A stretch of 32,000 nucleotides of DNA from Floridaenema fluviatile BLCC-F154 (GCF_041929135.1 NZ_JBHFNS010000031.1:1-32000), one strand, 5' to 3'. Positions 5,100 to 29,857 are shown, numbered from the stretch's first letter. The notes: generated from the sequence alone by a model not told the origin. Program-made: numbers and translations.

Positions 5100-6416
5100 A
5101 TGGAAAGCAGAAAACGGCCTATTGGTGTAGATTTATTTGCTGGTGCGGGTGGGATGACACTTGGTTTTGAACAAGCAGGATTCGACGTACTAGCTGCTGT
5201 AGAGATAGATCCAATTCATTGCGCCACCCACGAATATAACTTTCCGCTTTGGACTACTTTATGTCGTGATATTAACAAAACATCTGGCAGAGAAATTAGA
5301 GAACGATCGCAAATAGGCGATCGAGAAATTGACGTAGTATTTGGTGGTTCTCCTTGCCAAGGATTTTCGTTAATTGGCAAACGAGAATTAGGAGATCCGC
5401 GCAATACTTTGTTAAAACAATTTGTCAGAATAGTATTAGAACTAAAACCGAAATATTTCGTCCTCGAAAATGTCCGGGGATTGACCATTGGAAAACATCA
5501 AGAATTCCTGGGAGAAATTATTCAAGAATTTCAAGCAAACGGCTATAAATTAACAGAAGATTACCAAATTCTTAATGCGGCTCATTATGGAGTACCACAA
5601 GCGCGATCGCGAATATTTTTGTTAGGCTGTCGCCAAGATTTACCCTTACCAAAATATCCCGAACCCATCACCGCGACTAACTCCAAACGAGCCGGAAAAA
5701 CTAAACAAACTACCACTTCAACATTACCTTTAGTTCCTACAGTTTGGCAAGCGATCGGAGATTTACCCGAAGTCCAAAATCACCAAGAATTATTCACAAA
5801 AGATTGGGTAATTGCCAAATACGGAATTCCCAGCGAATACGCAGCTAAACTTCGCAACTTAACAGAAGAAGAAAATAATTACAGCTATCCAAGAGAACTG
5901 GATTACACAATTATTACTGCTAGTTTGCGTACCAAACATTCCGAAGCAGCAATGCAAAGATTTGAACAAACAAGTCATGGCAAAATTGAACCAGTAAGCC
6001 GTTTTTATAAACTGCATCCCGAAGGAATTTGTAACACATTAAGAGCCGGAACAGCGAGTAATCAAGGTGCTTTTACATCCCCCCGACCGATTCACCCATT
6101 TACTCCGAGATGTATTACAGTCAGAGAAGCAGCAAGATTACATTCTTATCCCGATTGGTTCCGATTTCACTCCACAAAATGGCATGGTTTCCGACAAGTA
6201 GGGAATTCCGTACCACCTTTATTAGCAAAAGCGATCGCATCTGAAGTTATAAAAGCTTTAGGAGTACAACCAATTAAACCCATAGAAATCATCCCATTAG
6301 GAGATGAAAAATTACTAGAATTAACCATGACCCAAGCTGCCGGAAAATATCTAGTTGACCCCCAAATTATCGAACCCAGAAAACGAGATTACAAAAAACT
6401 ACAAACCGCCGTCTAA
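5100..6416 (+). CDS. dcm: DNA (cytosine-5)-methyltransferase, apparently solitary
   Basis: Motif I DLFAGAGG, motif IV GGSPCQGFS, motif VI ENV, motif VIII QARSRIFL and motif X GNSVPP are present. No restriction-enzyme-like ORF is adjacent. Confidence 0.9.
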   Translation: MESRKRPIGVDLFAGAGGMTLGFEQAGFDVLAAVEIDPIHCATHEYNFPLWTTLCRDINKTSGREIRERSQIGDREIDVVFGGSPCQGFSLIGKRELGDPRNTLLKQFVRIVLELKPKYFVLENVRGLTIGKHQEFLGEIIQEFQANGYKLTEDYQILNAAHYGVPQARSRIFLLGCRQDLPLPKYPEPITATNSKRAGKTKQTTTSTLPLVPTVWQAIGDLPEVQNHQELFTKDWVIAKYGIPSEYAAKLRNLTEEENNYSYPRELDYTIITASLRTKHSEAAMQRFEQTSHGKIEPVSRFYKLHPEGICNTLRAGTASNQGAFTSPRPIHPFTPRCITVREAARLHSYPDWFRFHSTKWHGFRQVGNSVPPLLAKAIASEVIKALGVQPIKPIEIIPLGDEKLLELTMTQAAGKYLVDPQIIEPRKRDYKKLQTAV

Positions 6417-10154: not shown

Positions 10155-11312
10155 ATGAGTCAGCTTCACATCGCTTGGCTGGGAAAAAAAACCCCTTTTT
10201 GCGGCAATGTCACCTACAGTCGGGAAATTACTAATGCTTTAATGGGTAGACATAAGATTAGTTTTCTCCACTTTGCAGGAGAAGAATCCGACTCAGACAA
10301 ATGGCCTCAATATAAAGAAGTTTCCCTGCCCTTTTTATACAAGTCCCAGGTTTACACTATCCCCACATTACAATCAAGAAAAATTTTGATTGAATCGCTG
10401 CGGGATTTGCGACCAGACATCGTACACGCATCTCTTACCCTGTCTCCTTTAGATTTTGTACTTCCAGAAATCTGTCAGGAGCTAAATCTGCCCCTAGTGG
10501 CAACTTTCCATACTCCTTATGCTCGCAAAGGAGCCAAACTTAAATCGGGAACGCAATATCTGGCTTATCAACTATATTCACCTTTTTTAGCAAATTACGA
10601 TCGGGTAATTGTCTTTTCCGAGATCCAACGGGAGCTACTCGCCCGAATGGGTGTTTCCCCCTTACAGGTAGCTGTAATTCCCAACGGTGTAGATGAGCAG
10701 AAGTATTGTCCCGGAACTTCTAACCTGAAATCTCAGTTTAATGCTAAACGTATTTTTGTTTATCAAGGTCGAATTGCCCCAGAAAAAAATGTCGAAGCTT
10801 TACTTAGGGCTTGGCAAAAAGCCAACATGGGGCCAGATTGCAAATTACTGATTGTCGGCGATGGGCCTTTAAAAACATCTTTAGAGCCATTTTATGATTC
10901 TGAATCTGGGATTATTTGGTTAGGATTTGTGGCTGATGAACAGCGGCGAATTGAGATTTTGCGAGGCTCAGATGTATTTATTCTCCCTTCTTTAGCTGAA
11001 GGTCTTTCTTTGTCTTTGTTGGAAGCAATGGCTTGTGGTGTAGCTTGTATCGCTACTGATGTCGGCGCAGATGGCGAAGTTTTAGAAGGTGGCGCTGGCA
11101 TTGTTGTTAACCCTCAACGAGTGAAAACAGAGTTACAAACTTTGTTACCTCTGTTGCGCGACCACAAAGATTTCACTTCTACTTTAGGTCGCAATGCCAG
11201 GGCCAGAATTGTCGAAAGATACACTCTCAGCCGCAACATCGTTCAATTGGAAGAACTTTATCAGGAAGTCCTAGAAAAACCAATTTTTCCGCCGATGAAG
11301 CGCCGTGCTTGA
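10155..11312 (+). CDS. glycosyltransferase family 4 (GT-B, group 1)
   Basis: The C-terminal motif region is EGLSLSLLEAMACGVACIATDVGADGEVL. 385 aa. Confidence 0.85.
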   Translation: MSQLHIAWLGKKTPFCGNVTYSREITNALMGRHKISFLHFAGEESDSDKWPQYKEVSLPFLYKSQVYTIPTLQSRKILIESLRDLRPDIVHASLTLSPLDFVLPEICQELNLPLVATFHTPYARKGAKLKSGTQYLAYQLYSPFLANYDRVIVFSEIQRELLARMGVSPLQVAVIPNGVDEQKYCPGTSNLKSQFNAKRIFVYQGRIAPEKNVEALLRAWQKANMGPDCKLLIVGDGPLKTSLEPFYDSESGIIWLGFVADEQRRIEILRGSDVFILPSLAEGLSLSLLEAMACGVACIATDVGADGEVLEGGAGIVVNPQRVKTELQTLLPLLRDHKDFTSTLGRNARARIVERYTLSRNIVQLEELYQEVLEKPIFPPMKRRA

Positions 11313-18462: not shown

Positions 18463-20094
18463 ATGCCTCGTACTCCTACTTTAACTTTCGATCGCGGCAC
18501 CTTAATCCTACATCCACCACCAAGAGGCAAAAGCTGGGTGGAATTTGCTACTTGGGATGACAGAGTAGAAAAATTTCGCATTCCGGCTATTCATTACCGT
18601 CCTTTGGTAGAAGCTTTGCAAGCAGAAGGAATTAACTTTATTGATGAGGCAAAAGAATTTATACCTTTGCAATTAGTTCCGAGTTTAGAAATGGAACCTT
18701 ACCCTCATCAAAGTGAAGCTTTGGAGGCGTGGAAATTAGCAGGAAGAATGGGAGTTGTTGTGCTTCCAACTGCTGCGGGAAAAACTTATTTGGCGCAATT
18801 AGCAATGCAAGCTACGCCTCGGAGCACGTTAATTTTAGTGCCAACTTTGGATTTAATGCACCAATGGTATGCACATTTAGTGGCGGCTTTTCCTGATGCG
18901 GAAGTTGGTTTGTTGGGAGGTGGATCGAGGGATAAAAGTCAAATTCTTGTTGCTACTTATGATAGTGCGGCTATTAATGCGGAAAGTTTAGGAAATCGCT
19001 ATGCTTTGTTAATTTTTGATGAATGCCATCATTTACCTACGGAGTTTTATCGGGTGATTGCGGAATTTGCGATCGCACCCTACCGTTTAGGACTTTCCGC
19101 AACTCCCGAAAGAACCGATGGCAAACATAAGGAATTAGATACTTTAATTGGCACAGAAATTTACCGGAAAACACCCGAAGAATTAGCGGGGAAAGCTTTA
19201 GCCGATCATCAAATTATTCCGATTAAAGTTAAGTTATCTCAACAAGAAAGGGAAAGATATAATGAATTAATGAAAGTTCGCAATGACTTTTTGAAAGCCG
19301 AAAAAATTCAATTGGGAAGTCTGGAAGGTTGGCAAAGATTTGTGATGGTGAGTGCGCGATCGCCAGCCGGAAGACGTGCTATGCTAGCCCATAGAGAAGC
19401 CAGGGAAATTGCTGTGGGAACTGACGGGAAAATTCGCGTTTTAGCTGATTTATTAGCTGAACATTTTCCCGAAAGAACGTTGATATTTACGACAGATAAC
19501 GCCACAGTTTATCGCATTTCTCAAGAGTTTTTAATCCCAGCAATTACTTATCAAACTCCTGTGAAGGAAAGACACGAAATTTTAACTCGGTTTAAGCAGG
19601 GAGAATATAAAAGTTTAGTTGCTTCTCACGTTTTAAATGAGGGGGTTGATGTGCCAGCTGCTAGTATTGCAATTATCCTTTCTGGTACTGCTTCGCCAAG
19701 GGAATATATTCAAAGATTGGGGCGAATTTTGCGTAAGGGTGGTGATAATAATAAGCGGGCAATTTTGTATGAGGTGGTGACGGAAGATACGAGTGAGGAA
19801 AGGGTTTCGCAGCGGAGAAAGGGAGAGGAATTTGAACCGCATAGACGCGAAGGACGCAAAGAAAGAGAAGAAGAGAGTAAGTTTGTTCAGTTGGAACTTT
19901 TGCCTTCTGAACCTGTTTATAAGGTTGCTGAGTCGGCGGAGGTTGGGGTTGATGATTCGGTTAAGAATCAGGGAAAATCAGAGATAAGTTATTCTAAGGA
20001 AAGTCGAAAGTCTAAGAAGAAAAATGTTACCAAGCGAGTTGCTGATTCATCGCCAAAGTGGGGAGTCGATAATCCCGAAACGTCTGAAGATTGA
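18463..20094 (+). CDS. XPB/Rad25-like SF2 DNA helicase
   Basis: Motif I PTAAGKT, motif II FDECHH, motif III LSATPERTDG (the RED-motif position reads RTD) and motif VI QRLGRILR are present. The N-terminal LTFDRGTLIL resembles the XPB damage-recognition domain. The tail beyond about residue 445 is highly charged and low-complexity. Confidence 0.85.
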   Translation: MPRTPTLTFDRGTLILHPPPRGKSWVEFATWDDRVEKFRIPAIHYRPLVEALQAEGINFIDEAKEFIPLQLVPSLEMEPYPHQSEALEAWKLAGRMGVVVLPTAAGKTYLAQLAMQATPRSTLILVPTLDLMHQWYAHLVAAFPDAEVGLLGGGSRDKSQILVATYDSAAINAESLGNRYALLIFDECHHLPTEFYRVIAEFAIAPYRLGLSATPERTDGKHKELDTLIGTEIYRKTPEELAGKALADHQIIPIKVKLSQQERERYNELMKVRNDFLKAEKIQLGSLEGWQRFVMVSARSPAGRRAMLAHREAREIAVGTDGKIRVLADLLAEHFPERTLIFTTDNATVYRISQEFLIPAITYQTPVKERHEILTRFKQGEYKSLVASHVLNEGVDVPAASIAIILSGTASPREYIQRLGRILRKGGDNNKRAILYEVVTEDTSEERVSQRRKGEEFEPHRREGRKEREEESKFVQLELLPSEPVYKVAESAEVGVDDSVKNQGKSEISYSKESRKSKKKNVTKRVADSSPKWGVDNPETSED

Positions 20095-21238
20095 TGACAG
20101 GAATTTGGAGATTGCGACGGATTTAATTAGTTGTTTTGAGGAGAATGTCGGGAAAACTCAAGGAAATTTGGATAAGCAGCTTTTGGAGTTGGAAGGTGAT
20201 AGTCCAGATTATCGTTTAAAGCGGGGTTTTGCTCATTTGTTGAAGAGTAGTTTCGCTACTTTTGAAATTGTTAGTCCTCTGGAACCGCAGGAATTACGTC
20301 AGCGAGTTTTTACTTTATCTGCACAATCAATTCCTAATCCTTTGGCATCTCAAAGGGTGTTGAATAATTTAGCCGATCGACTAACTCAGGAGTTAAATAA
20401 AGAGGTTACTTCTCAACAAATTCGCACTGGTTTATATGCAGATTTACAGGAAAATCGCATTTTGACTCAGTTCGATCCTCCTGCACCAGAAGATATTATC
20501 CATCGTTATAATATTTCGCAAGTTCAAGGAGTTTTTTATCGTGCTAGTCAGATTATAATTAATGCTCATCGTAATGTTCCGGGTGAGTATAAATTGCTGT
20601 TTCGCTATCTGAAATTGTTTCAATTAATGGCTTATATTGAAGGGGATGCCGATCACGGTTTTACTATTACTATTGATGGGCCAACTAGTTTATTTAAAGC
20701 TAGCACGAGATATGGATTGGCGATCGCTAAATTAATCCCCGCACTTTTGCACGTCACTAAATGGAGTCTCAGCGCCACTTTACAAACAAAAGATATCTAC
20801 AGCGGAAAGCAAAAAACTGGCAGATTTACCCTCAATTCTGATTGCGGTTTAGTCACTCATTATCCCCCCGGAAAACCTTACGATAGTATGTTAGAAGCTG
20901 GATTTGCTAATCGTTGGGATTCCCTAAAAACTGATTGGGTTTTAGAACGAGAAGTTGACTTAATTCCGATTCCCGGAAGTGTCATGATTCCCGATTTTCG
21001 CTTAGTTCATCCCGATGGTAGAACTTATTTATTAGAAATAGTTGGTTACTGGCGACCTGAATATTTACAAAAGAAATTTGCTCAAGCAAGAAAAGCAGAA
21101 TGTGACAATTTAATTTTGGCAGTTTCGGAAAGATTGAATTTAGAAAAAGCTGGGGTTAAAGTCAGTAACACTCCTGCCAAAATTGTCTGGTTTAAAGATA
21201 AACTTTCCCCCAAAGCAGTGTTAGAAGTTCTAGAATAA
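20024..21238 (+). CDS. DUF790 / Bax1-like nuclease (XPB partner)
   Basis: The N-terminus MLPSELLIHRQSGESIIPKRL, the ~400-aa size and the position directly after an XPB-like helicase match the archaeal/bacterial XPB-Bax1 pairing. It overlaps the helicase ORF by 71 bp. Confidence 0.7.
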   Translation: MLPSELLIHRQSGESIIPKRLKIDDRNLEIATDLISCFEENVGKTQGNLDKQLLELEGDSPDYRLKRGFAHLLKSSFATFEIVSPLEPQELRQRVFTLSAQSIPNPLASQRVLNNLADRLTQELNKEVTSQQIRTGLYADLQENRILTQFDPPAPEDIIHRYNISQVQGVFYRASQIIINAHRNVPGEYKLLFRYLKLFQLMAYIEGDADHGFTITIDGPTSLFKASTRYGLAIAKLIPALLHVTKWSLSATLQTKDIYSGKQKTGRFTLNSDCGLVTHYPPGKPYDSMLEAGFANRWDSLKTDWVLEREVDLIPIPGSVMIPDFRLVHPDGRTYLLEIVGYWRPEYLQKKFAQARKAECDNLILAVSERLNLEKAGVKVSNTPAKIVWFKDKLSPKAVLEVLE

Positions 21239-22149: not shown

Positions 22150-22476
22150 ATGGGAAATTTAACTTCAACTTTTGAGGAGTTAATCACAGAAATTGCTGCA
22201 ATTAATCAAGCTTGGAAAGTATCAAAGGAACTTTCTCCTAATTTGGGTAATTCCCTAAAAGACTTAAAAAATCGCTTGCAGGTGCGGCTACTCCGCAAAT
22301 ATGCACCAGAGCGAGTTTATTTGGAATTAGACACAGCAACCGAAAGTGAAGAACCACTTTACAGTTTGCGACTTCGGCAACCTATAGGAAATTGCTGGAA
22401 TGTTGAACATTTGCCTGTGCGGGTAGCTCAAGAAATGCTATCGGATGAAGAGTTAAAGCAGTTGATAAAAGTGTAA
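22150..22476 (+). CDS. hypothetical protein (108 aa), first gene of the Zorya-like operon
   Basis: The ORF ends 20 bp before the SD/GTG start of the ZorA-like gene. No recognised domain. Confidence 0.5.
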   Translation: MGNLTSTFEELITEIAAINQAWKVSKELSPNLGNSLKDLKNRLQVRLLRKYAPERVYLELDTATESEEPLYSLRLRQPIGNCWNVEHLPVRVAQEMLSDEELKQLIKV

Positions 22477-22496
22477 CCAAATAAAGGAGAAAATCA

Positions 22497-24809
22497 GTGA
22501 ACGAATTGTGGAAAGTAGTAAACCTAGTAGTGAACCAATTGTGGAGAGTAGTAAAAACAGTCATTTATGATTTTAATTACTTTTTTGGATTAAATTGGCA
22601 GAACATTATCTTTTATTTGTTAATAGTTGGGTTGTTCGTGTTTGCTGTTAGGAAAGAATGGCGTGCTACCAAGCGGTATCAAAGAAATCAAAAGTCAAAA
22701 ATTAGTATAATAGATGACGCGCTTAAATATTTATCTAAAAACTTAACAAGGGTAAAAGGAATTGGAAGAGAAACAGTCAACTTAGATTTTGAGAACATTC
22801 CTAAACATATCCGCAAAGAAATATTTAACTGGGTAAGCGAACATCTAGCTGGAATTGAAAGAAACGGTACTTTTCAAGCGCAATTACAGTCCGGGCGCTT
22901 TGTGCTTGTACAGTATCCAACAATTCTGGAAAAGCCAGTTCCTCGTAGTTCTTTGCGCTTCATTCAAAGCATATTAATTGCACTTGGAGTTTTGGGAACT
23001 TTTTTCGGAATTCAAGTAGGACTTCGCAGCATTTCTTTAAGCGATATTGGGCAAAATAGTGGTCATTTACTTAAGTCAAGTGTCCAACTACTTGAAGGAA
23101 TGAAAACAGCTTTTTCTACTTCATTAGTTGGATTAGGATTGTCCAGTATTTTTACATTGTTTTTAGCTTTTTGTGAACGGGAAAGACAACAGGATCGCGA
23201 TCGCCTAAAAAGCCAACTAGACTCAATTACCATATTAGAAACACCGATGCGACTGTTTGAAAGAATGAATCCTGAAGCCAATTTGAAAGCTTCTCAAGCA
23301 CTTGCAAATGCAGCGGAAACAATGGGAACGAAATTTGCGGAACTGATAGAAATTCAGCGCCAATTAAGTCCGAAAGCGATCGGACAAGAAGTAGGAAACG
23401 TCATCAAACCTGTGTTGCAAGAAATTCAAGTCGAACTAACAGCATTGAGAGAAATCAAGGCAGATCAAGGTCAAGAAATATTGAAAAATTTAATCGAAGA
23501 ACAGAGAGAACAGTTAATTAAACCAATTATTACCGAACTAAGTAATAGTGCCAAGCTGACAAAACAAGCTTCCGAAGCTGTAATGGATCTAAAAAATGAA
23601 TTAGGCAGTGTTTCTCGTAGTTTATCAGAATCTATTATTACCATTGAGCGATTTCAATCCGAAACTTTGGAGAAACTGCAACAATTTGCTACTAACTTAG
23701 AAGCAATTTTAGGCGAGTTCCGAAATGATACTAAAAACGTCATGCAACAAGTAGCAACCGAAGTTAAAACTGTTGTTAATGAAAGTATTTTAGCGATGCA
23801 AAATCAGCGAACTGCTTTTGAATCTAGCGCCGAAAAAGCAGCTGCTACTTTCGCAGGAATTCGGGAAGAATTGGAAAAATCTCTCAACACTCAGGCGGAA
23901 ATTCAACAGCAGTCGATGCAACAATTTCAAAACTACATTCATGAAATTTTTGCCGAACAAAATAACAACCTGCAACAATTAGGCGAACAAAGCTCTGAAG
24001 CAATGCGCGTGCAACGTGATGCGCTGACTAAAATTGCCAAACAAACAATTAGTACATTCATCGGTATTCGTGAAGAACTAGAACAATCTCTGCAAACTCA
24101 AGCGCAAATAGAACGGGAGTTAATTCAAGAATTTCAAAACCGTTCTTTGGAAATTTTCGATCGTCAAGCTAACAATTTAAGTCAAGTTGGCAACGCCGCT
24201 TCTCAGCAAATGAATGAAGCTAAGGAAAACCTAAATTCTACTCTCAGCAATATCGATTCTGTGTTGCAAAATACCCGCTTAACAGTGCAGGGAGAGTTAG
24301 AGAATTTCCGCATAAACTATCAAGCTGCTTTGCAAGAATTCTTCAGCCAGCAAAATCAATTGTTAGAAGGAACATTAGGCGAACAACGCCAAGGATTAGC
24401 CAATGTAGTGGAAAACTTTAAGGGAGTTTTTGAAGAAGAATATCATCGACGCACAGCTTTTTTCCAAGAAATTCAAGAAACTACTAAAGTTGTCAGCAAT
24501 TTAGCTAACACAATTGGATTGAGTTCAAGTGAGAGACTAGTACAACTTAAAGAGTTAGCTGAAACTATAGGTGATGAAGCGTCTCGCGTAGATAAAGCTT
24601 ATCAGAATTTAACCGACAAGTTTAACCAAGCTTTAGGAAGTTGGAATAAAGAACTAGTCGATTATTTCCAGCGAAAATCTGAATTTGAAATGAATTTTTT
24701 CACCAAAGCAGATGCAGCGACGGAAAAAGTATGCCACCAATTATTACAAGCCGCTAACTATTTAGTAGCTGCTGAAAACACTCGCAAAGTTAACAATGAA
24801 GAACATTAA
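22497..24809 (+). CDS. ZorA-like protein: MotA/ExbB-type membrane module plus a ~540-aa coiled-coil tail
   Basis: The GTG start is preceded by AAGGAG. Three hydrophobic helices are present: IIFYLLIVGLFVFAV, FIQSILIALGVLGTFFGIQVGL and TAFSTSLVGLGLSSIFTLFLAF. The last two resemble the GLLGTVxG and TTxxGL helices of MotA/ExbB/TolQ. The rest is Q/E/L-rich heptad-like sequence with an internal 69-aa duplication. Confidence 0.7.
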   Translation: MNELWKVVNLVVNQLWRVVKTVIYDFNYFFGLNWQNIIFYLLIVGLFVFAVRKEWRATKRYQRNQKSKISIIDDALKYLSKNLTRVKGIGRETVNLDFENIPKHIRKEIFNWVSEHLAGIERNGTFQAQLQSGRFVLVQYPTILEKPVPRSSLRFIQSILIALGVLGTFFGIQVGLRSISLSDIGQNSGHLLKSSVQLLEGMKTAFSTSLVGLGLSSIFTLFLAFCERERQQDRDRLKSQLDSITILETPMRLFERMNPEANLKASQALANAAETMGTKFAELIEIQRQLSPKAIGQEVGNVIKPVLQEIQVELTALREIKADQGQEILKNLIEEQREQLIKPIITELSNSAKLTKQASEAVMDLKNELGSVSRSLSESIITIERFQSETLEKLQQFATNLEAILGEFRNDTKNVMQQVATEVKTVVNESILAMQNQRTAFESSAEKAAATFAGIREELEKSLNTQAEIQQQSMQQFQNYIHEIFAEQNNNLQQLGEQSSEAMRVQRDALTKIAKQTISTFIGIREELEQSLQTQAQIERELIQEFQNRSLEIFDRQANNLSQVGNAASQQMNEAKENLNSTLSNIDSVLQNTRLTVQGELENFRINYQAALQEFFSQQNQLLEGTLGEQRQGLANVVENFKGVFEEEYHRRTAFFQEIQETTKVVSNLANTIGLSSSERLVQLKELAETIGDEASRVDKAYQNLTDKFNQALGSWNKELVDYFQRKSEFEMNFFTKADAATEKVCHQLLQAANYLVAAENTRKVNNEEH

Positions 24810-24811
24810 TT

Positions 24812-25477
24812 ATGTTTAATTTCACTGACTTACAACAACAAGATCTAGAGGAAGAAGAATCGAGCGTTTTCCTATCAATTGGCGATTTAATGTCAGGTTT
24901 ACTGATGATTTTTGCCCTGCTATTCGTGACAGTTCTTGTTCAGCTAAAAGATCGAGAAGAACCACGTCGGGTTGTAATTGGTACTGTAGTTGAACAGATG
25001 AAAGGTAATAACATTAATGTGGAAGTTAACCCGGAAACTGGCGATGTCAGCATTCAGGATAAGATTCTTTTTGATGAGAATAGTGCTGAATTAAAGCCCG
25101 CAGGTAAGTTATTTCTGCAAGAATTTATTCCGGTTTACAGTCGCGTCATTTTTTCTAAAAAAGACTTTGAAAAAGAGATTGCGAGAGTGGTTATTGAAGG
25201 GCATACTAGCTCGAAAGGAGATTATAATAGCAATTTGCAATTGAGCTTATTACGATCGCTCTCTGTAGCTAAATTCATCTTCTCCAATGAACTAGATTTT
25301 TCCACAAAATCAGAATTGAGAACAAAAATTATGGCAGCAGGGCGAGGGGAAATGGAAGCTAAACAAGAACAAGATGATCCTAGCGATCGCAAAGTAATCT
25401 TCCGCTTCCAATTTCGCGGTGAAAACTTCTCAGAATGGTATCAAAAAACTGAATCTTTCCAAAAACAAAAACCATGA
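24812..25477 (+). CDS. ZorB-like protein: MotB-type TM helix plus an OmpA-like peptidoglycan-binding domain
   Basis: It starts 2 nt after the ZorA-like stop. The TM segment FLSIGDLMSGLLMIFALLF carries the conserved Asp. The OmpA-like region has ILFDENSAELKPAG, VVIEGHTSSKGDYNSNLQLSLLRSLSV and DRKVIFRF. Confidence 0.8.
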   Translation: MFNFTDLQQQDLEEEESSVFLSIGDLMSGLLMIFALLFVTVLVQLKDREEPRRVVIGTVVEQMKGNNINVEVNPETGDVSIQDKILFDENSAELKPAGKLFLQEFIPVYSRVIFSKKDFEKEIARVVIEGHTSSKGDYNSNLQLSLLRSLSVAKFIFSNELDFSTKSELRTKIMAAGRGEMEAKQEQDDPSDRKVIFRFQFRGENFSEWYQKTESFQKQKP

Positions 25478-25532
25478 GACTTCATTATAATTATGTTTTA
25501 ATTAACCCTACGAAAATACATTATTTAAAACT

Positions 25533-25910
25533 ATGGAGAACGAAGGAGGACAAGTTAGCCGTAATCAAGTTGATGAAATTAAGGCGATCGCCGAACAATA
25601 CGACATAGGAACTTGCTTGCAATGTGCTGCGGCAATTAAATCATACTTGAAATCTCAGCAAATTAAAGGCAGACATATCAGAGTCGAGACTCTTTCTCCA
25701 AACGGATTACAAGGAATTATTTACGATGATGACACAAACCAGCAGATTGCCACCAATGGATTCCATGAAGGAATTGCGATCGACATCGAAGGAGTGGAAA
25801 AAGTTTTTGATAACCTGTACCATGAAGGAAAGCCGATAAACGAATGGTTACAAGATTTAGTCGTTATCTCTGGCAATCAGCTTAATCTCATAAACAAAGA
25901 ACAATTTTAG
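25533..25910 (+). CDS. small papain-fold toxin-like protein (Tox-PL-2-like), 125 aa
   Basis: The pattern GTCLQCAAAIKSYLKSQQIKGRHIRV ... ATNGFHEGIAI ... VFDNLYHEG ... EWL matches my memory of 'papain fold toxin 2' domains, with Cys at a helix N-terminus, then His, then Asp/Asn. Unverified. Confidence 0.5.
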   Translation: MENEGGQVSRNQVDEIKAIAEQYDIGTCLQCAAAIKSYLKSQQIKGRHIRVETLSPNGLQGIIYDDDTNQQIATNGFHEGIAIDIEGVEKVFDNLYHEGKPINEWLQDLVVISGNQLNLINKEQF

Positions 25911-25936
25911 GAAAAAATTCCAGAAAAAGAGGTAAT

Positions 25937-26293
25937 ATGATTAGTTTTTCGGAACTTTTACCCAACATCAAAAAAAGACCGACACTTTATTTAAGTCGGT
26001 ACTCAATTTTTGATTTTCAATCCTTCTATTATGGGTACGATCTCGCTAGGAATCAAATCGGATTGCCTAAACCAGAACAAGATCGAGAATTTGAAGATTT
26101 TTTGTTATGGTTACGAGAAAGATATAAAATAGAAACTACTCAATCTTGGGCAAGTCTCATCCTGTTTCATTCTGTAGATGAAAGAGATGCTCTAAATCGG
26201 TTGTTTGACTTATGGGAAAAATTTCAGAATCGCGAACAAGCTAACGATCGCCCAAGTCAACACAACGAGGTCAAAAACGAAAAGTCCCGTTAA
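25937..26293 (+). CDS. putative cognate immunity protein (118 aa)
   Basis: Small acidic/aromatic ORF 26 bp downstream of the toxin-like ORF. The call rests on position only. Confidence 0.35.
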   Translation: MISFSELLPNIKKRPTLYLSRYSIFDFQSFYYGYDLARNQIGLPKPEQDREFEDFLLWLRERYKIETTQSWASLILFHSVDERDALNRLFDLWEKFQNREQANDRPSQHNEVKNEKSR

Positions 26294-26359
26294 GTGCTTC
26301 GCGCAGGGAAAAGAAAAGAGGGAAAAGGGCAAAAGGGTAAAAGTATAAAGAGGCTCTAA
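26290..26359. repeat. 70-bp direct repeat, left copy (identical to 28925-28994)
   Basis: ttaagtgcttcgcgcagggaaaagaaaagagggaaaagggcaaaagggtaaaagtataaagaggctctaa is identical at both sites. Weaker similarity (aaaaacgaaaa) extends about 15 bp further left at both sites. Confidence 0.9.
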
Positions 26360-26378
26360 ATCCGCGCAGCAGCACAGA

Positions 26379-26514
26379 CAAAGCAGATGCAGCAACGGAA
26401 AAAGTTTGCCAGCAATTATTATTATAATAGCAATTTGCAATTGAGCTTATTAAGTTCCAATTTCGCGGCGAAAACTTCTCAGAATGGTATCAAAAAACAG
26501 CGCCAAAACCATGA
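26379..26514 (+). pseudogene. collapsed 'ghost' copy of the zorA 3' end and zorB
   Basis: 26379-26421 matches 24704-24746 (40/43). 26421-26452 equals 25221-25252 (32/32). 26455-26498 matches 25406-25449 (43/44). The ghost keeps the zorB reading frame to a TGA (26512-26514) that overlaps the next ATG. Confidence 0.8.
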
Positions 26515-28007
26515 AATTTCAGTTTAAAACCTTACATTTACCAGAATTATTTGAGTACCAGCCGACTAAATTGGCTCAACTTGTTACTCAATTAAATGAG
26601 TCAAGTAATTATTCAGAGTTACATAAGTTGGCGGAGATTTTGCCGATCGCACCCCGCACTATTGGCGAAATTATCAGCGACATTCAAAACAATCAAACTG
26701 ATAGGATTAGCTTGTTAGAATGGGCTTACTGCCTTTATAATAAAGCCGAATGGGATGAACAAAATCCACAGCAAAGTCAAGAAACTTCTCAGAAAATTTG
26801 GCAAGAAGCAACCCACAGTTCTTGGTTAAAACAGATATTATTTTGGCTATTGGCGCTTAATTATGGCGATCGCAATTCTCGGAAAATTGCGCCATCTTTA
26901 GCAGATTGCTTTCCTAAATTTAAGCCTCAATTTGTGATTAGCTATCCCCTAGCCGTACAAATCCTAACTGCACTCAGTAATCAATCTTTTGACAAATTAG
27001 CTCAAATTTGTTGGCAACATTTACTCACACCAGAACAATTATTAAATCGCGCTCAATTACCCCCTAACTTTAGTGGAAATAACACAGCTTTAGACGAAAT
27101 GGTTAAACTCTTTCCGATTGAAACTCCTCATGTTGAGCAACAAAATTTACTCATAAAATGTTTTGAAGAAATGTCAATTGAACAGCAGGTAAAAGCAATA
27201 GAAAATCTGTTAATGAATGTTTCAATTGAAGTCGGTAGCACTCTCTCCAAATTAGTCGAATGGCTGCGGCAAAATTATGGCCCACGCACTGCTAGTTCCC
27301 GGTGGCAGCAACTTTCAGAACAAGCAAAATTAGCTCTCCGCCAATGGATTAAAGCTGCTAGTTATCGGGATTTTGACATATTAGTAGATGTGCTATTGCA
27401 ACAGTTAAATACTCAACCTCGTGAGCACAATCAACTGAAACGGCGCAGAGATTTTTGGTCTAATTATAGCGATCGTTTTGAGCGAATTCGCATCCTCTTG
27501 CCTGAAGAATCAGCTAACATACTTGGTTCTCATTTACAGCGGGATGTAGATATTTTAGTTCCTGACGGCAGCGATGCCACCGAAGTTTGTATTTTTGATT
27601 TTGGCGATTGGTTTGTCGTTGAATTTTTTCGAGGTATTGGCAGCGAAATTCGCCTGTTCGATCGCCATAAACACCCCCAAATTGAACAAATACTTTTTGC
27701 ATCTCCCACCCTATCAATCAAGCAAATTCGCAGATTAGACGGCAACATCCACGATCACGTTTATCTTTGGCAAAATCACTGCGAAAAATGGTTAAGAGAT
27801 TTCGGTATTCGCCCCAACTCTAAAACTAAAACATTCAAAGGTTTATCCGGCAACTGCGCTAAATATGATGAAAATAATGGACTTCCTACACCTTCAAAAG
27901 AAGATTTACAAAACCGAGAAGATCATTTAAGAAAATGGCGGTGGCAAATAAATAAACTAGAAAGCGAAGCAAAACCCGAACCAAAAAAATTCCATTCCCC
28001 CCCTTAA
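26511..28007 (+). CDS. ZorC-like protein (probable EH-signature domain)
   Basis: I prefer the start at ATG 26511 (MKFQFKTLHL), which forms an ATGA overlap with the ghost zorB stop. The ORF-track start at 26484 lies inside ghost sequence. The C-terminal region RRRDFWSNYSDRFERIRILLP...EVCIFDFGDWFVVEFFRGIGSEIRLFD...HDHVYLWQNHCEKWL resembles the EH-signature domain of ZorC, from memory. The size fits ZorC. Confidence 0.55.
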   Translation: MKFQFKTLHLPELFEYQPTKLAQLVTQLNESSNYSELHKLAEILPIAPRTIGEIISDIQNNQTDRISLLEWAYCLYNKAEWDEQNPQQSQETSQKIWQEATHSSWLKQILFWLLALNYGDRNSRKIAPSLADCFPKFKPQFVISYPLAVQILTALSNQSFDKLAQICWQHLLTPEQLLNRAQLPPNFSGNNTALDEMVKLFPIETPHVEQQNLLIKCFEEMSIEQQVKAIENLLMNVSIEVGSTLSKLVEWLRQNYGPRTASSRWQQLSEQAKLALRQWIKAASYRDFDILVDVLLQQLNTQPREHNQLKRRRDFWSNYSDRFERIRILLPEESANILGSHLQRDVDILVPDGSDATEVCIFDFGDWFVVEFFRGIGSEIRLFDRHKHPQIEQILFASPTLSIKQIRRLDGNIHDHVYLWQNHCEKWLRDFGIRPNSKTKTFKGLSGNCAKYDENNGLPTPSKEDLQNREDHLRKWRWQINKLESEAKPEPKKFHSPP

Positions 28008-28312
28008 TAAGGGGGGCTAGGGGGGATCAAATGCCACGATAAAATCAGCAAAACCCGAATCAAAAAAATTCCATTCCCCCCCTTATTAAGGGGGGCTAGG
28101 GGGGATCAAATGCCACGATAAAATCAGCAAAACCTCAACCAAAAAAATTCCTGTCCCCCCCTTATTAAGGGGGGCTAGGGGGGATTAAATACCACGATAA
28201 AATCAGCAAAACCTCAACCAAAAAAATTCCTGTCCCCCCCTTATTAAGGGGGGTTAGGGGGGATCAAATGCCATCATCAAATCACCAAAACCTCAACAAC
28301 ACCGAATTTCAC
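27966..28312. repeat. tandem array, ~4.4 copies of a 79-bp unit, each containing the palindrome cccccccttattaagggggg
   Basis: C-runs start at 27997, 28076, 28155 and 28234 (period 79). Each unit reproduces the region upstream of, and the first codons of, the DUF559 gene (atgccacgataa versus atgccatcatca). Confidence 0.85.
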
Positions 28313-28675
28313 CTACCCTACAACCGTCAACTAGTAGAAAGAGCAAAAGAACTTCGCCAAAACCCAACACCCGCAGAAAAAAAGCTTTGGCAAAACTACC
28401 TCAGAACCTTTAAATTTCGAGTTTTACGTCAACGACCAATTGATAATTTCATAGTTGATTTTTACTGCGCTGCATTGAAATTAGTAATTGAAGTTGATGG
28501 AGAAAGTCATTTTACTGATCAAGGTCAGGAATATGACCGAGAAAGAACACAAATATTAGAAGGATATGGGTTGAAAGTTGTGAGATTTACTAATGAACAA
28601 GTGTTGAATAATTTTGAGGCGGTGTGTGGGGAAATTGAGGGTTTGATCCCCCCTAGCCCCCCTTAATAAGGGGGG
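28234..28675 (+). mobile_element. DUF559 ORF bracketed by 31-bp terminal inverted repeats (candidate selfish mini-element)
   Basis: Left end: cccccccttattaaggggggttaggggggatc (28234-28265). Right end: gatcccccctagccccccttaataagggggg (28645-28675). The right end is the reverse complement of the left apart from one c/t difference and one extra C. Confidence 0.4.
28268..28666 (+). CDS. DUF559 (Vsr/PD-(D/E)xK-like) endonuclease domain protein
   Basis: PTPAEKKLWQNYLR..FKFRVLRQRPIDNFIVDFYCAALKLVIEVDGESH...YDRERTQILEGYGLKVVRFTNEQV is the canonical DUF559 pattern. Confidence 0.85.
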   Translation: MPSSNHQNLNNTEFHLPYNRQLVERAKELRQNPTPAEKKLWQNYLRTFKFRVLRQRPIDNFIVDFYCAALKLVIEVDGESHFTDQGQEYDRERTQILEGYGLKVVRFTNEQVLNNFEAVCGEIEGLIPPSPP

Positions 28676-28876
28676 AACTGGATTCAAATTTTCTGATTTT
28701 TGCTAGAGATTAGATCCCCCCTAACCCCCCTTAATAAGGGGGGAACCGGATTCAAATTTTCTGATTTTTGCTAGAGATTAGATCCCCCCTAACCCCCCTT
28801 AATAAGGGGGGAATCGGATTCAAGATTCAAATCAGCTTCAAAGTCCCCCTTATTAAGGGGGATTTAGGGGGATCGT
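28645..28876. repeat. tandem array, 3 copies of a 68-bp unit (gatcccccctaaccccccttaataagggggg...), plus one inverted 5-mer-tract variant
   Basis: Unit starts are at 28645, 28713 and 28781. The variant cccccttattaagggggatttagggggatc lies at about 28845-28874. The first unit encodes the DUF559 C-terminus (LIPPSPP*). Confidence 0.85.
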
Positions 28877-28924
28877 CAACTTGTGCCTAAAAGGTTTTAT
28901 ATTCAGAAAAAACGAAAAAATTTT

Positions 28925-28994
28925 TTAAGTGCTTCGCGCAGGGAAAAGAAAAGAGGGAAAAGGGCAAAAGGGTAAAAGTATAAAGAGGCTCTAA
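28925..28994. repeat. 70-bp direct repeat, right copy (identical to 26290-26359)
   Basis: See the left copy. Its last bases overlap the stop codon of the FGE-family gene. Confidence 0.9.
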
Positions 28995-29857
28995 GTCCAC
29001 TCCGCACTACATACAATACGAAAACCAATACCGTCGTTACCGTCGTCCGCATTGTAGTCGTAGCGACAGGCGGAACGGCAGTGCTCAGGATTGTTGCCCC
29101 ACGAACCACCGCGCAGCAGCCTTATTAAGCTTTCATCACTAGATAACCATATACTCGCATCGTTAGGTGCGCCTTCATAATTATCATGCCAATGATCAGC
29201 ACACCATTCCCAAACATTGCCGTGCATATCGTAAAGCCCGAAAGCATTCGCGGGAAAACTGCGAACTTCTGTAGTTTGCTGTCGATAAATTCCCTTAGAG
29301 CCAGAAGCGTAGACATAGTTGCCATTGTAATTGGCTAAATCGGTTGTAATCGTTTCGCCAAAATGAAAAGGTGTTGTAGTTCCCGCACGACAGGCATATT
29401 CCCACTCCGCCTCACTCGGCAATCGATAATTTTGCCCGGTTTTCTGGGATAGCCGTTCGCAAAACTCCACCGCCTCATACCAGGAAACTTGCTCTACCGG
29501 ACGATTTGCACCTTTGAAAGAAGATGGCTCAGGATTGAGGCCAATTTTAACAATGGGAAAACCTGCGACTGTTTCCCATTGAGCTTGCGTAACCTGAAAC
29601 TTACCCATGAAAAAGGGTTTTATAGTCACTGAATGCTTTGGCTTTTCATAATCTAACGATTCTCGTTCATCAGTTGGCGAACCCATCAGGAATGTGCCAC
29701 TAGAAATCGCAACCATTTCCAGAATTACCCCATTCCCCAAGTCTTCAGTAAAAAATTCTGCTTGTTTACGACTGCGTTTGATTTCGTAAGTAACTTCTTC
29801 ACCTTTTTTGACAACAGAAATAGTTGCCGTCTCAAAATCAAAGGTCTGTTTTTGCAT
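28991..29857 (-). CDS. formylglycine-generating enzyme (SUMF1/FGE-sulfatase) family protein
   Basis: RLPSEAEWEYACRAGT, GLYDMHGNVWEWCADHW and RLLRGGSW are present. Confidence 0.85.
   Translation of the reverse strand: MQKQTFDFETATISVVKKGEEVTYEIKRSRKQAEFFTEDLGNGVILEMVAISSGTFLMGSPTDERESLDYEKPKHSVTIKPFFMGKFQVTQAQWETVAGFPIVKIGLNPEPSSFKGANRPVEQVSWYEAVEFCERLSQKTGQNYRLPSEAEWEYACRAGTTTPFHFGETITTDLANYNGNYVYASGSKGIYRQQTTEVRSFPANAFGLYDMHGNVWEWCADHWHDNYEGAPNDASIWLSSDESLIRLLRGGSWGNNPEHCRSACRYDYNADDGNDGIGFRIVCSAEWT

Follow-up and report, generated by a model that had tools for sequence, protein, structure and literature searches.

Zorya genes and a zorAB relic in the window

The window analysed here, the whole stretch of 32,000 nucleotides NZ_JBHFNS010000031.1:1-32000 (assembly GCF_041929135.1) of Floridaenema fluviatile BLCC-F154, contains the genes of a Zorya defence system in which zorB and zorC are separated by a toxin/immunity pair and by a short relic of zorA and zorB themselves, called the ghost in what follows. 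All the genes listed here are on the plus strand except the last one. The cluster begins with a small gene, orfX (22150-22476, 108 aa), followed by an intact zorA (22497-24809, 770 aa) that matches the PADLOC model ZorA1 (PDLC00597, E = 1e-236) and is 92% identical in DNA to its counterpart in L001, one of the related loci described below. Its product conforms to what is expected of ZorA, a channel protein of the MotA/ExbB type whose C-terminal tail is long, the Pfam MotA_ExbB match being weak. The equally intact zorB (24812-25477, 221 aa) codes for the expected MotB/OmpA-like peptidoglycan-binding partner (PADLOC ZorB1, PDLC00609, E = 7e-75; Pfam OmpA, E = 1e-10). Behind zorB come a Tox-PL-2 toxin gene (25533-25910, 125 aa; PF15643, E = 3e-31), a putative immunity ORF without family match (25937-26293, 118 aa), the ghost, and an intact zorC (26511-28007, 498 aa). 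The latter codes for the EH-signature protein typical of ZorC (Pfam EH_Signature PF15611, E = 8e-29) and covers positions 1-491 of the 495 of the PADLOC ZorC1 profile (PDLC00618, E = 5e-188). A DUF559 endonuclease gene (28268-28666; PF04480, E = 2e-30) and, on the minus strand, a resident gene of the FGE-sulfatase family (28991-29857; PF03781, E = 4e-56) follow, the last being the right boundary of the interval that is duplicated.

A BLAST comparison of the 32-kb window with itself, in which the best unrelated match had an E-value of ~0.1, recovered the three blocks of the ghost exactly as they had been placed in a preliminary description of this DNA. All are on the plus strand and colinear with the order of their sources, from the end of zorA into zorB. 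Block 1 (26379-26421) corresponds to the zorA 3' end at 24704-24746 (40/43 identical, E = 2e-12), block 2 (26421-26452) to the internal zorB segment 25221-25252 (32/32, E = 5e-13; extendable to 26421-26457 against zorB 25221-25257, with 35/37) and block 3 (26455-26498) to zorB 25406-25449 (43/44, E = 8e-18). Together with a shortened zorB tail, block 3 (26455-26514) ends on an ATGA that it shares with zorC. The same ATGA is found at the stop of the resident zorB (25474-25477) and at the ghost/zorC boundary (26511-26514), as had been noticed before.

The offsets of the ghost to its source are 1675, 1200 and 1049 for the three blocks and 1037 at the stop codon, corresponding to net deletions of 475, 151 and 12 nt. 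The first junction lies, as originally proposed, on a shared microhomology (ATTATTA/ATTATAA). The second had been taken for an in-frame loss of 153 nt; the offsets of 1200 and 1049 give a net loss of 151 nt instead, therefore a frameshift, and the 12-nt deletion is the only multiple of three. Blocks 1, 2 and 3 occupy frames 1, 2 and 1. In the zorB frame of block 3, two stop codons (~26424-26429) precede the block and there is no ATG, GTG or TTG before the TGA at 26512, which indicates that the ghost is a non-coding relic. Of the idea that it keeps the zorB frame as far as the TGA, what survives is that the last ~85 nt share a frame ending on ATGA; a translatable zorB frame does not exist. There is also an ORF of 46 codons across the ghost (26387-26527). 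Its start codon (26387) goes back to an ATG of zorA that lies out of frame; block 2 is then read in the genuine zorB frame, and the stop falls 13 nt past the zorC ATG, so that the ORF could in principle allow translational re-initiation at zorC.

Directly behind the resident zorB we found a decayed remnant of a zorC start (ATGAGACTTCA..., 25474-25487, plus strand). The similarity pointed out earlier between the two starts (atgagacttca and atgaaatttca) amounts to 9 of 11 equal positions. An AT-rich spacer (25488-25521, 23% GC) with no match in any fetched locus comes next. The last 28 nt of the resident zorB (25450-25477) are unusually divergent, and substitutions private to the window are concentrated at 25450-25497, with 15 per 100 nt versus ~3 elsewhere. 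This cluster starts at 25450, right where the homology to block 3 ends.

The second repeated element is a 70-bp sequence, R70. Its copy 1 (26290-26359) supplies the stop codon of the immunity gene and is identical to copy 2 (28925-28994), both on the plus strand (70/70, E = 1e-35). The short trace aaaaacgaaaa precedes both copies (26273-26283 and 28908-18). These observations bear out the preliminary description, which had gone on to propose R70 as a site of recombination. Actually, an alignment of the sequences that lie below every FGE stop codon in the relatives shows R70 to be the conserved 3' flank of these genes, ~95-97% identical in the related loci L003-L006, and not a dedicated crossover site. 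Copy 2 occupies its native place beneath the FGE stop (CTA at 28991-28993), as in L003-L006. Copy 1 is followed by an FGE 3'-end remnant on the minus strand (26356-26381), made of the stop codon (26356-26358) and ~22 nt of coding sequence from an allele other than the resident one. BLAST alignments to the FGE 3' ends of L004 and L003 reach 26381, and mismatches counted by eye on the alignment were 7/22 versus the resident FGE and 3/22 versus that of L006. The remnant meets block 1 of the ghost at a CAA microhomology. Because copy 1 continues into the coding end of FGE, the sole truly novel junction is FGE3'/zorA3', with R70 as a passenger, and the duplicated unit seems to cover everything from zorA 24704 to a point 22 nt into FGE. 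A role of R70 as structured RNA or terminator was also considered and rejected; Rfam gave nothing on R70, only sub-threshold hairpin noise from the adjoining G-rich repeats, and the terminator scan was empty.

Two independent unitigs from the Logan collection (run SRR30638122) were 100% identical to window positions 25223-26319 and 26423-28011. The first (L008) covers the 3' half of zorB, the toxin, the immunity gene and the start of R70, and the second (L009) block 2, the second junction, block 3, the 12-nt loss and zorC. Both end exactly within the 32-nt block and R70, which is how true repeats behave in a graph with k=31; an exact-protein look-up with the resident ZorB gave no record, which fits unitigs that break within zorB. 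It is extremely improbable that the assembler created the junctions as chimeras. In favour of such an artefact, the order across the 70-bp and 32-bp repeats, where the unitigs break, depends on repeat resolution. However, the internal ghost junctions share 0-7 nt, far under any k-mer size, so no assembler could produce them; L008 and L009 reproduce the junction sequence, the latter spanning the second junction exactly; and among the Eulerian paths of the graph only one passes R70 twice, the order of the window. Example junction k-mers of the arrangement are GCACAGACAAAGCAGATGCAG, CAATTATTATTATAATAGC and GCTTATTAAGTTCCAATTT. Taken as it stands, the sequence points to a genuine recombination scar, with an FGE3'/zorA3' junction at CAA and a cassette/R70 junction at AAAAACGAAAA.

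A ZorD-less Zorya cluster and an autonomous toxin/immunity pair

A ZorB search of the species representatives of GTDB gave seven loci, six of them syntenic with the window (L001-L006) and one, from Aliterella (L007), distant and non-syntenic; three further distant loci (L019, L020 and L021) complete a set of ten related zorB loci. The syntenic order is XPB helicase, Bax1 nuclease, Uma2, orfX, zorA, zorB, a variable stretch, DUF559, FGE and two glycosyltransferases. In L001, L002, L006, L007 and L019 zorB ends on the ATGA that starts zorC, which upholds the proposal that zorC was once translationally coupled to zorB. The ATGA is followed by a full zorC in L001, L002 and L007, whereas L006 retains its first 52 codons only. 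Four distinct deletions have removed zorC from L003, L004, L005 and L006, leaving residues from a few bases to these 52 codons, and the zorC-less L003, L004 and L005 have short zorC-start remnants similar to the one in the window at distinct junctions, TTCATTATAAT being common to the window and L004. From this comparison, the Zorya system would seem to be decaying in the Floridaenema/Phormidium clade. The deletion junctions of L003-L006 are located around 10660-10830. In L003-L005, where nearly all zorC is gone, the ZorA tails are shortened by in-frame deletions (~510-630 aa versus 770), and in L006 ZorA is full-length. The part of zorA coding for the tail has an internal direct repeat of 105 nt in the window (23829-23933 and 24036-24140, 72% identity, 207-nt spacing), in a region that varies in length among the relatives.

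Outside this clade the cluster is simpler. Kamptonema, Nostoc and Stanieria have orfX-zorA-zorB-zorC with housekeeping genes on the flanks, and the ORF preceding zorA is 52-73% identical to the orfX of the window. The orfX homologues (108-119 aa) are of no known family, and orfX itself has no Pfam or PADLOC match. The four-gene cluster extends over 22150-28007 in the window, 4881-9488 in L019, 4910-9485 in L020, 4466-9509 in L021 and 18-1870 in L007. ZorD, the large helicase/nuclease that adjoins zorC, had no match among the window ORFs of 100 aa or more (PADLOC and Pfam were applied to those at 18.4-28.7 kb, Pfam alone to the remaining ones) nor in any of the ten related loci; in L007, L019, L020 and L021 the genes after zorC are unrelated and include no large helicase ORF. 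Neither ZorD nor DUF559 was found in the Kamptonema, Nostoc and Stanieria clusters, and DUF559 is a neighbour unrelated to Zorya. All the intact cyanobacterial clusters examined, from five genera, have zorC behind zorB, and more than 300 ZorC homologues were found. From these gene orders zorC is the conserved last gene of a four-gene Zorya variant (orfX-zorA-zorB-zorC) that looks like a ZorD-less type I system. As the conserved end of a cluster without ZorD, zorC is therefore not cargo, as the preliminary description would have it. The comparison also exposes a widespread cyanobacterial ZorD-less Zorya with a conserved orfX, repeatedly decaying in one clade, which may be a more rewarding subject than the scar.

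The toxin has the Tox-PL-2 signature of C, NxxH and DN described by Zhang et al. 2012 (PMC3482391), here C31, N75xxH78 and D93N94, invariant or nearly so in 31 homologues. We found ~40 clusters of toxin homologues, of which almost every one is a free-standing protein of ~125 aa from a filamentous cyanobacterium. In all nine other loci for which DNA was available (9/9) the toxin gene is followed by a homologue of the 118-aa ORF; these sites are unrelated, and Zor and FGE genes are in none of them. A tenth context, known from its gene table, places the toxin amid NACHT and toxin-antitoxin genes. The homology to other loci is confined to 25522-26282 on the plus strand (93.6% identity with L010) and stops within ~10 nt of the two ORFs. 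No Rhs, secretion or trafficking domain is fused to the toxin or present in the flanks examined, no transposase or integrase gene was found in 25.4-29 kb, and the cassette has no terminal repeats. The repeats that flank it are copies of host genes and not the ends of an element such as a transposon or integron. At its right end the cassette joins the native R70 flank at the AAAAACGAAAA microhomology, and the immunity ORF takes its last codons and its stop codon from this flank. An assignment of the 118-aa protein to Imm73, or to any other family, was tried and dropped, no Pfam match appearing even at E <= 10. Judging from these contexts the pair is an autonomous two-gene module that landed here, with a putative immunity function for the second gene. 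Its presence elsewhere at unrelated sites devoid of Zor genes means that it is not an effector allele of Zorya, and its earlier description as alternative Zorya cargo has to be abandoned. Moreover, the pair is in none of the seven GTDB loci, and alleles carrying zorAB and the toxin/immunity pair only, which the preliminary description had suggested looking for at syntenic loci, were not seen in the relatives compared.

The broader proposal, of an exchangeable effector slot behind zorB in which the toxin/immunity pair and zorC-DUF559 are alternative cargo recombining at R70 or zorAB, is very improbable and largely refuted by the same comparison. It was suggested by two gene sets being stacked downstream of a single intact zorAB and separated by a zorAB ghost, by the variability of the stretch after zorB among the relatives and by the differences in post-zorAB genes among Zorya types (PMC11946911, PMC11890865). 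A fragment of the conserved upstream genes indeed precedes zorC, as expected of a displaced cassette. However, what comes after zorB is zorC or a deletion of it in all ten related loci, and in none of them another effector. The variation of the relatives is due to the four independent deletions of zorC and not to replacements, zorC is in its place in all the intact clusters of the five genera, the toxin/immunity pair is never beside Zor genes in its nine other loci, the clusters of Kamptonema, Nostoc and Stanieria lack DUF559, and R70 belongs to FGE. Genes stacked behind zorAB should, with this example in mind, not be read as alternative effectors.

All of zorA, zorB, the toxin, the immunity gene and zorC are on one strand, and a simple terminator scan gave no terminator-like site in 25300-29100, hence none between zorB and zorC, which makes co-transcription plausible. 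Little credence can be given to the stacked arrangement being functional as such, either with the pair captured in the ZorAB transcription unit as an additional, ZorAB-linked effector of the abortive-infection type or with the R70-bounded 2.6-kb segment of ghost, zorC and DUF559 able to excise and re-insert. If true, this segment would switch zorC on and off in a polyploid cyanobacterial population.

Origin of the rearrangement

Of ~119 aligned sites, 4 set the ghost apart from the resident zorAB, and at all four its state is one seen in the relatives. Block 1 is identical to the zorA of L002 (43/43) and less similar to the resident zorA (40/43), which at the three sites in question is equal to L001. 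Random decay of a copy made in situ would not recreate the allele of another strain, and therefore DNA of a second lineage was involved. From block 3 on, the ghost passes into zorC without a break, in the manner of L001 and L002, save for the net loss of 12 nt. The preliminary description had already postulated a second allelic zorAB as the source of the ghost, and these matches agree with it. That the blocks belong to a dispersed repeat family unrelated to zorAB was ruled out, the relatives having the block sequences solely inside zorA and zorB.

With a probability of roughly 60%, we consider that the scar consists of two versions of the interval between the 3' ends of zorA and FGE, which homologous and illegitimate recombination between related strains has placed head to tail. 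One version would have lost zorC, like four of the six syntenic relatives, and would carry the Tox-PL-2/immunity pair between zorB and R70. The other would be of the usual type, zorA-zorB-zorC-DUF559-R70-FGE. One illegitimate junction at the 3-nt CAA would have connected a point ~22 nt inside the FGE codons with zorA 24704, and a homologous exchange elsewhere in the shared sequence would have completed the join, be it by homology-facilitated illegitimate recombination, by integration of a circularised fragment or by unequal exchange between chromosome copies. Such a join would duplicate both zorA3'-zorB and R70. The redundant zorA3'-zorB copy would then have shrunk from 774 to 136 nt through three deletions, short or at microhomologies (net 475, 151 and 12 nt), and the residual 136 nt would now act as a non-coding leader that keeps the native ~60 nt upstream of zorC. 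As a result, zorC is no longer translationally coupled to zorB. The event could have gone in either direction, with zorC regained by a zorC-less allele bearing the toxin or with the toxin allele added to one bearing zorC. The earlier idea that a second zorAB segment was integrated and then reduced by microhomology deletions would thus keep its second allele and its deletions, and lose R70 as the site and zorC as the cargo.

Several observations weigh against this reconstruction. Both flanks of the ghost are L001-like and its block 1 is L002-like, which suggests a mosaic history, and the sliding identity to L001, L002 and L006 is also mosaic, with no clean assignment of donor and recipient. The parent allele that it presupposes (zorAB-tox-imm-R70-FGE), detectable as zorB-tox-imm or imm-R70-FGE, was not found in the seven GTDB loci, in six JGI metagenome loci retrieved with the toxin profile or in the contexts of the closest toxin homologues. 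The two R70 copies are 100% identical, yet the adjacent 22 nt are only 68% so, which requires either strong conservation of R70 (~95-97% in the relatives) or gene conversion. Both exact repeats coincide with unitig ends, so that the order across the 70-bp R70 rests on repeat resolution and not on reads.

Alternatively, everything would have happened in a single complex event, in which template switching or multi-fragment end-joining inserted ~1.04 kb at zorB/zorC and the ghost was never full-length. The insertion would have combined the toxin/immunity cassette with short templated patches, R70 with the FGE end, 43 nt of zorA and 32 nt plus 44 nt of zorB. The patches are indeed short and colinear and are joined at microhomologies of 1-7 nt or by a 2-nt filler; the ghost has no private substitutions and would therefore be young; and block 3 (44 nt, offset 1049) flanks the insert as in a single crossover with a small circle, the divergence starting exactly at 25450. 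However, the patches carry non-resident states at 4/119 zorAB and 7/22 FGE positions. Hence the present chromosome did not serve as their template, a second genome remains necessary, and the data fit one event as well as several. We regard the single event as unlikely, if by no means negligible.

The number of FGE paralogues at the syntenic position ranges from one to three in the relatives, and the interval from zorB to the glycosyltransferases therefore looks like a rearrangement hotspot. Tandem FGE-sulfatase paralogues, two or three of them, are found in L003 (11112-14365), L005 (10709-15265) and L006 (10886-14402); they have 70-83% amino acid identity to the FGE of the window and most have an R70-like 3' flank. 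Duplication being thus common here, the scar could also come from a tandem duplication of 24704-29016 in situ, within one genome, after which the toxin/immunity pair took the place of zorC-DUF559 in the first copy and zorA3'-zorB decayed in the second. A single novel FGE3'/zorA3' junction in a head-to-tail layout is the expected product of such a duplication. Its copies should have begun identical, though, and the differences in the ghost match the allele of another strain exactly; 7/22 positions are different in the FGE remnant against 0/70 in R70, and more steps are required. This origin seems improbable to us, and the joining of two allelic versions remains the preferred reading, under which the locus is a base-resolved example of gene gain and loss in a defence operon of filamentous cyanobacteria.

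Neighbouring genes and comparison with known systems

Immediately 5' of the Zorya cluster, in the window (18463-21238) as in six out of six syntenic relatives, there are two overlapping genes for an XPB-like helicase, with an XPB damage-recognition domain, and a Bax1/DUF790 nuclease. The helicase also matches the PADLOC models for PbeA and Dnd restriction, and the pair may be a separate defence module. Far from it, a lone gene for a C-5 cytosine DNA methyltransferase (5100-6416) is located amid housekeeping genes, with Zn ABC transporter genes upstream and DeoC aldolase and RecO downstream, and no Pfam restriction-endonuclease match there. HIP1-type GCGATCGC sites occur in the window and, together with the relatives, mark it as DNA of a filamentous cyanobacterium belonging to the Phormidium/Floridaenema group. 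The DUF559 gene is flanked by two tandem arrays in inverted orientation (27889-28362 and 28642-28874). One consists of ~5 copies of a 79-bp repeat that lie over the zorC stop codon, so that the 3' end of zorC overlaps them, and the other of three copies of a 68-bp repeat. Both are based on the palindrome CCCCCC(C)TTATTAAGGGGGG plus CTAGGGGGG and are present in the relatives with different copy numbers; in Rfam they gave only sub-threshold matches to miRNA-like hairpins.

Displaced 3' fragments and orphan modules are known from the C-terminal displacement of Rhs proteins and from the type VI secretion (T6SS) effector-immunity arrays of Vibrio cholerae (PMC5361080). Like in those systems, a new toxin/immunity module stands here directly behind a conserved gene, with the older module pushed downstream and preceded by a leftover of the conserved gene, and recombination homologous on one side and illegitimate on the other has been proposed. 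Unlike them, the displaced zorC is a core component and not a toxin, the incoming pair is unrelated to Zorya, the relatives have no array or recurrent exchange, and the leftover is a triple-deleted non-coding relic of 136 nt. As for the toxin itself, it shares with the Tox-PL-2/Imm73 cassettes of Zhang et al. 2012 (PMC3482391) the papain-fold C, NxxH and DN residues and a small conserved gene immediately after it. It differs in being a stand-alone protein of 125 aa, without a trafficking or Rhs part, and in that the downstream protein has no Imm73 match.

The types of Zorya differ in the genes that follow zorAB (PMC11946911, PMC11890865). The cluster of the window resembles type I (ZorABCD) in its strong PADLOC matches to ZorA, ZorB and ZorC and in the ATGA coupling of zorB and zorC in the relatives. 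It departs from this type in having no ZorD, in the conserved orfX before zorA and in the splitting of the operon by the toxin/immunity pair.

The closest parallel for the process is the homology-facilitated illegitimate recombination of transformable bacteria (de Vries & Wackernagel 2002 and Prudhomme et al. 2002, summarised in PMC3240628). The similarities are a homologous anchor combined with a junction at a microhomology of few nucleotides, foreign DNA beside conserved sequence and a donor from a related strain. In the classical cases, however, the outcome is an insertion with a deletion, whereas the junction in the window lies inside the shared homology and hence led to a duplication; a sequence shows the product of such a process and not the process. 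The scar is in this respect a fresh instance, in a cyanobacterial Zorya operon, of a known class of recombination product.

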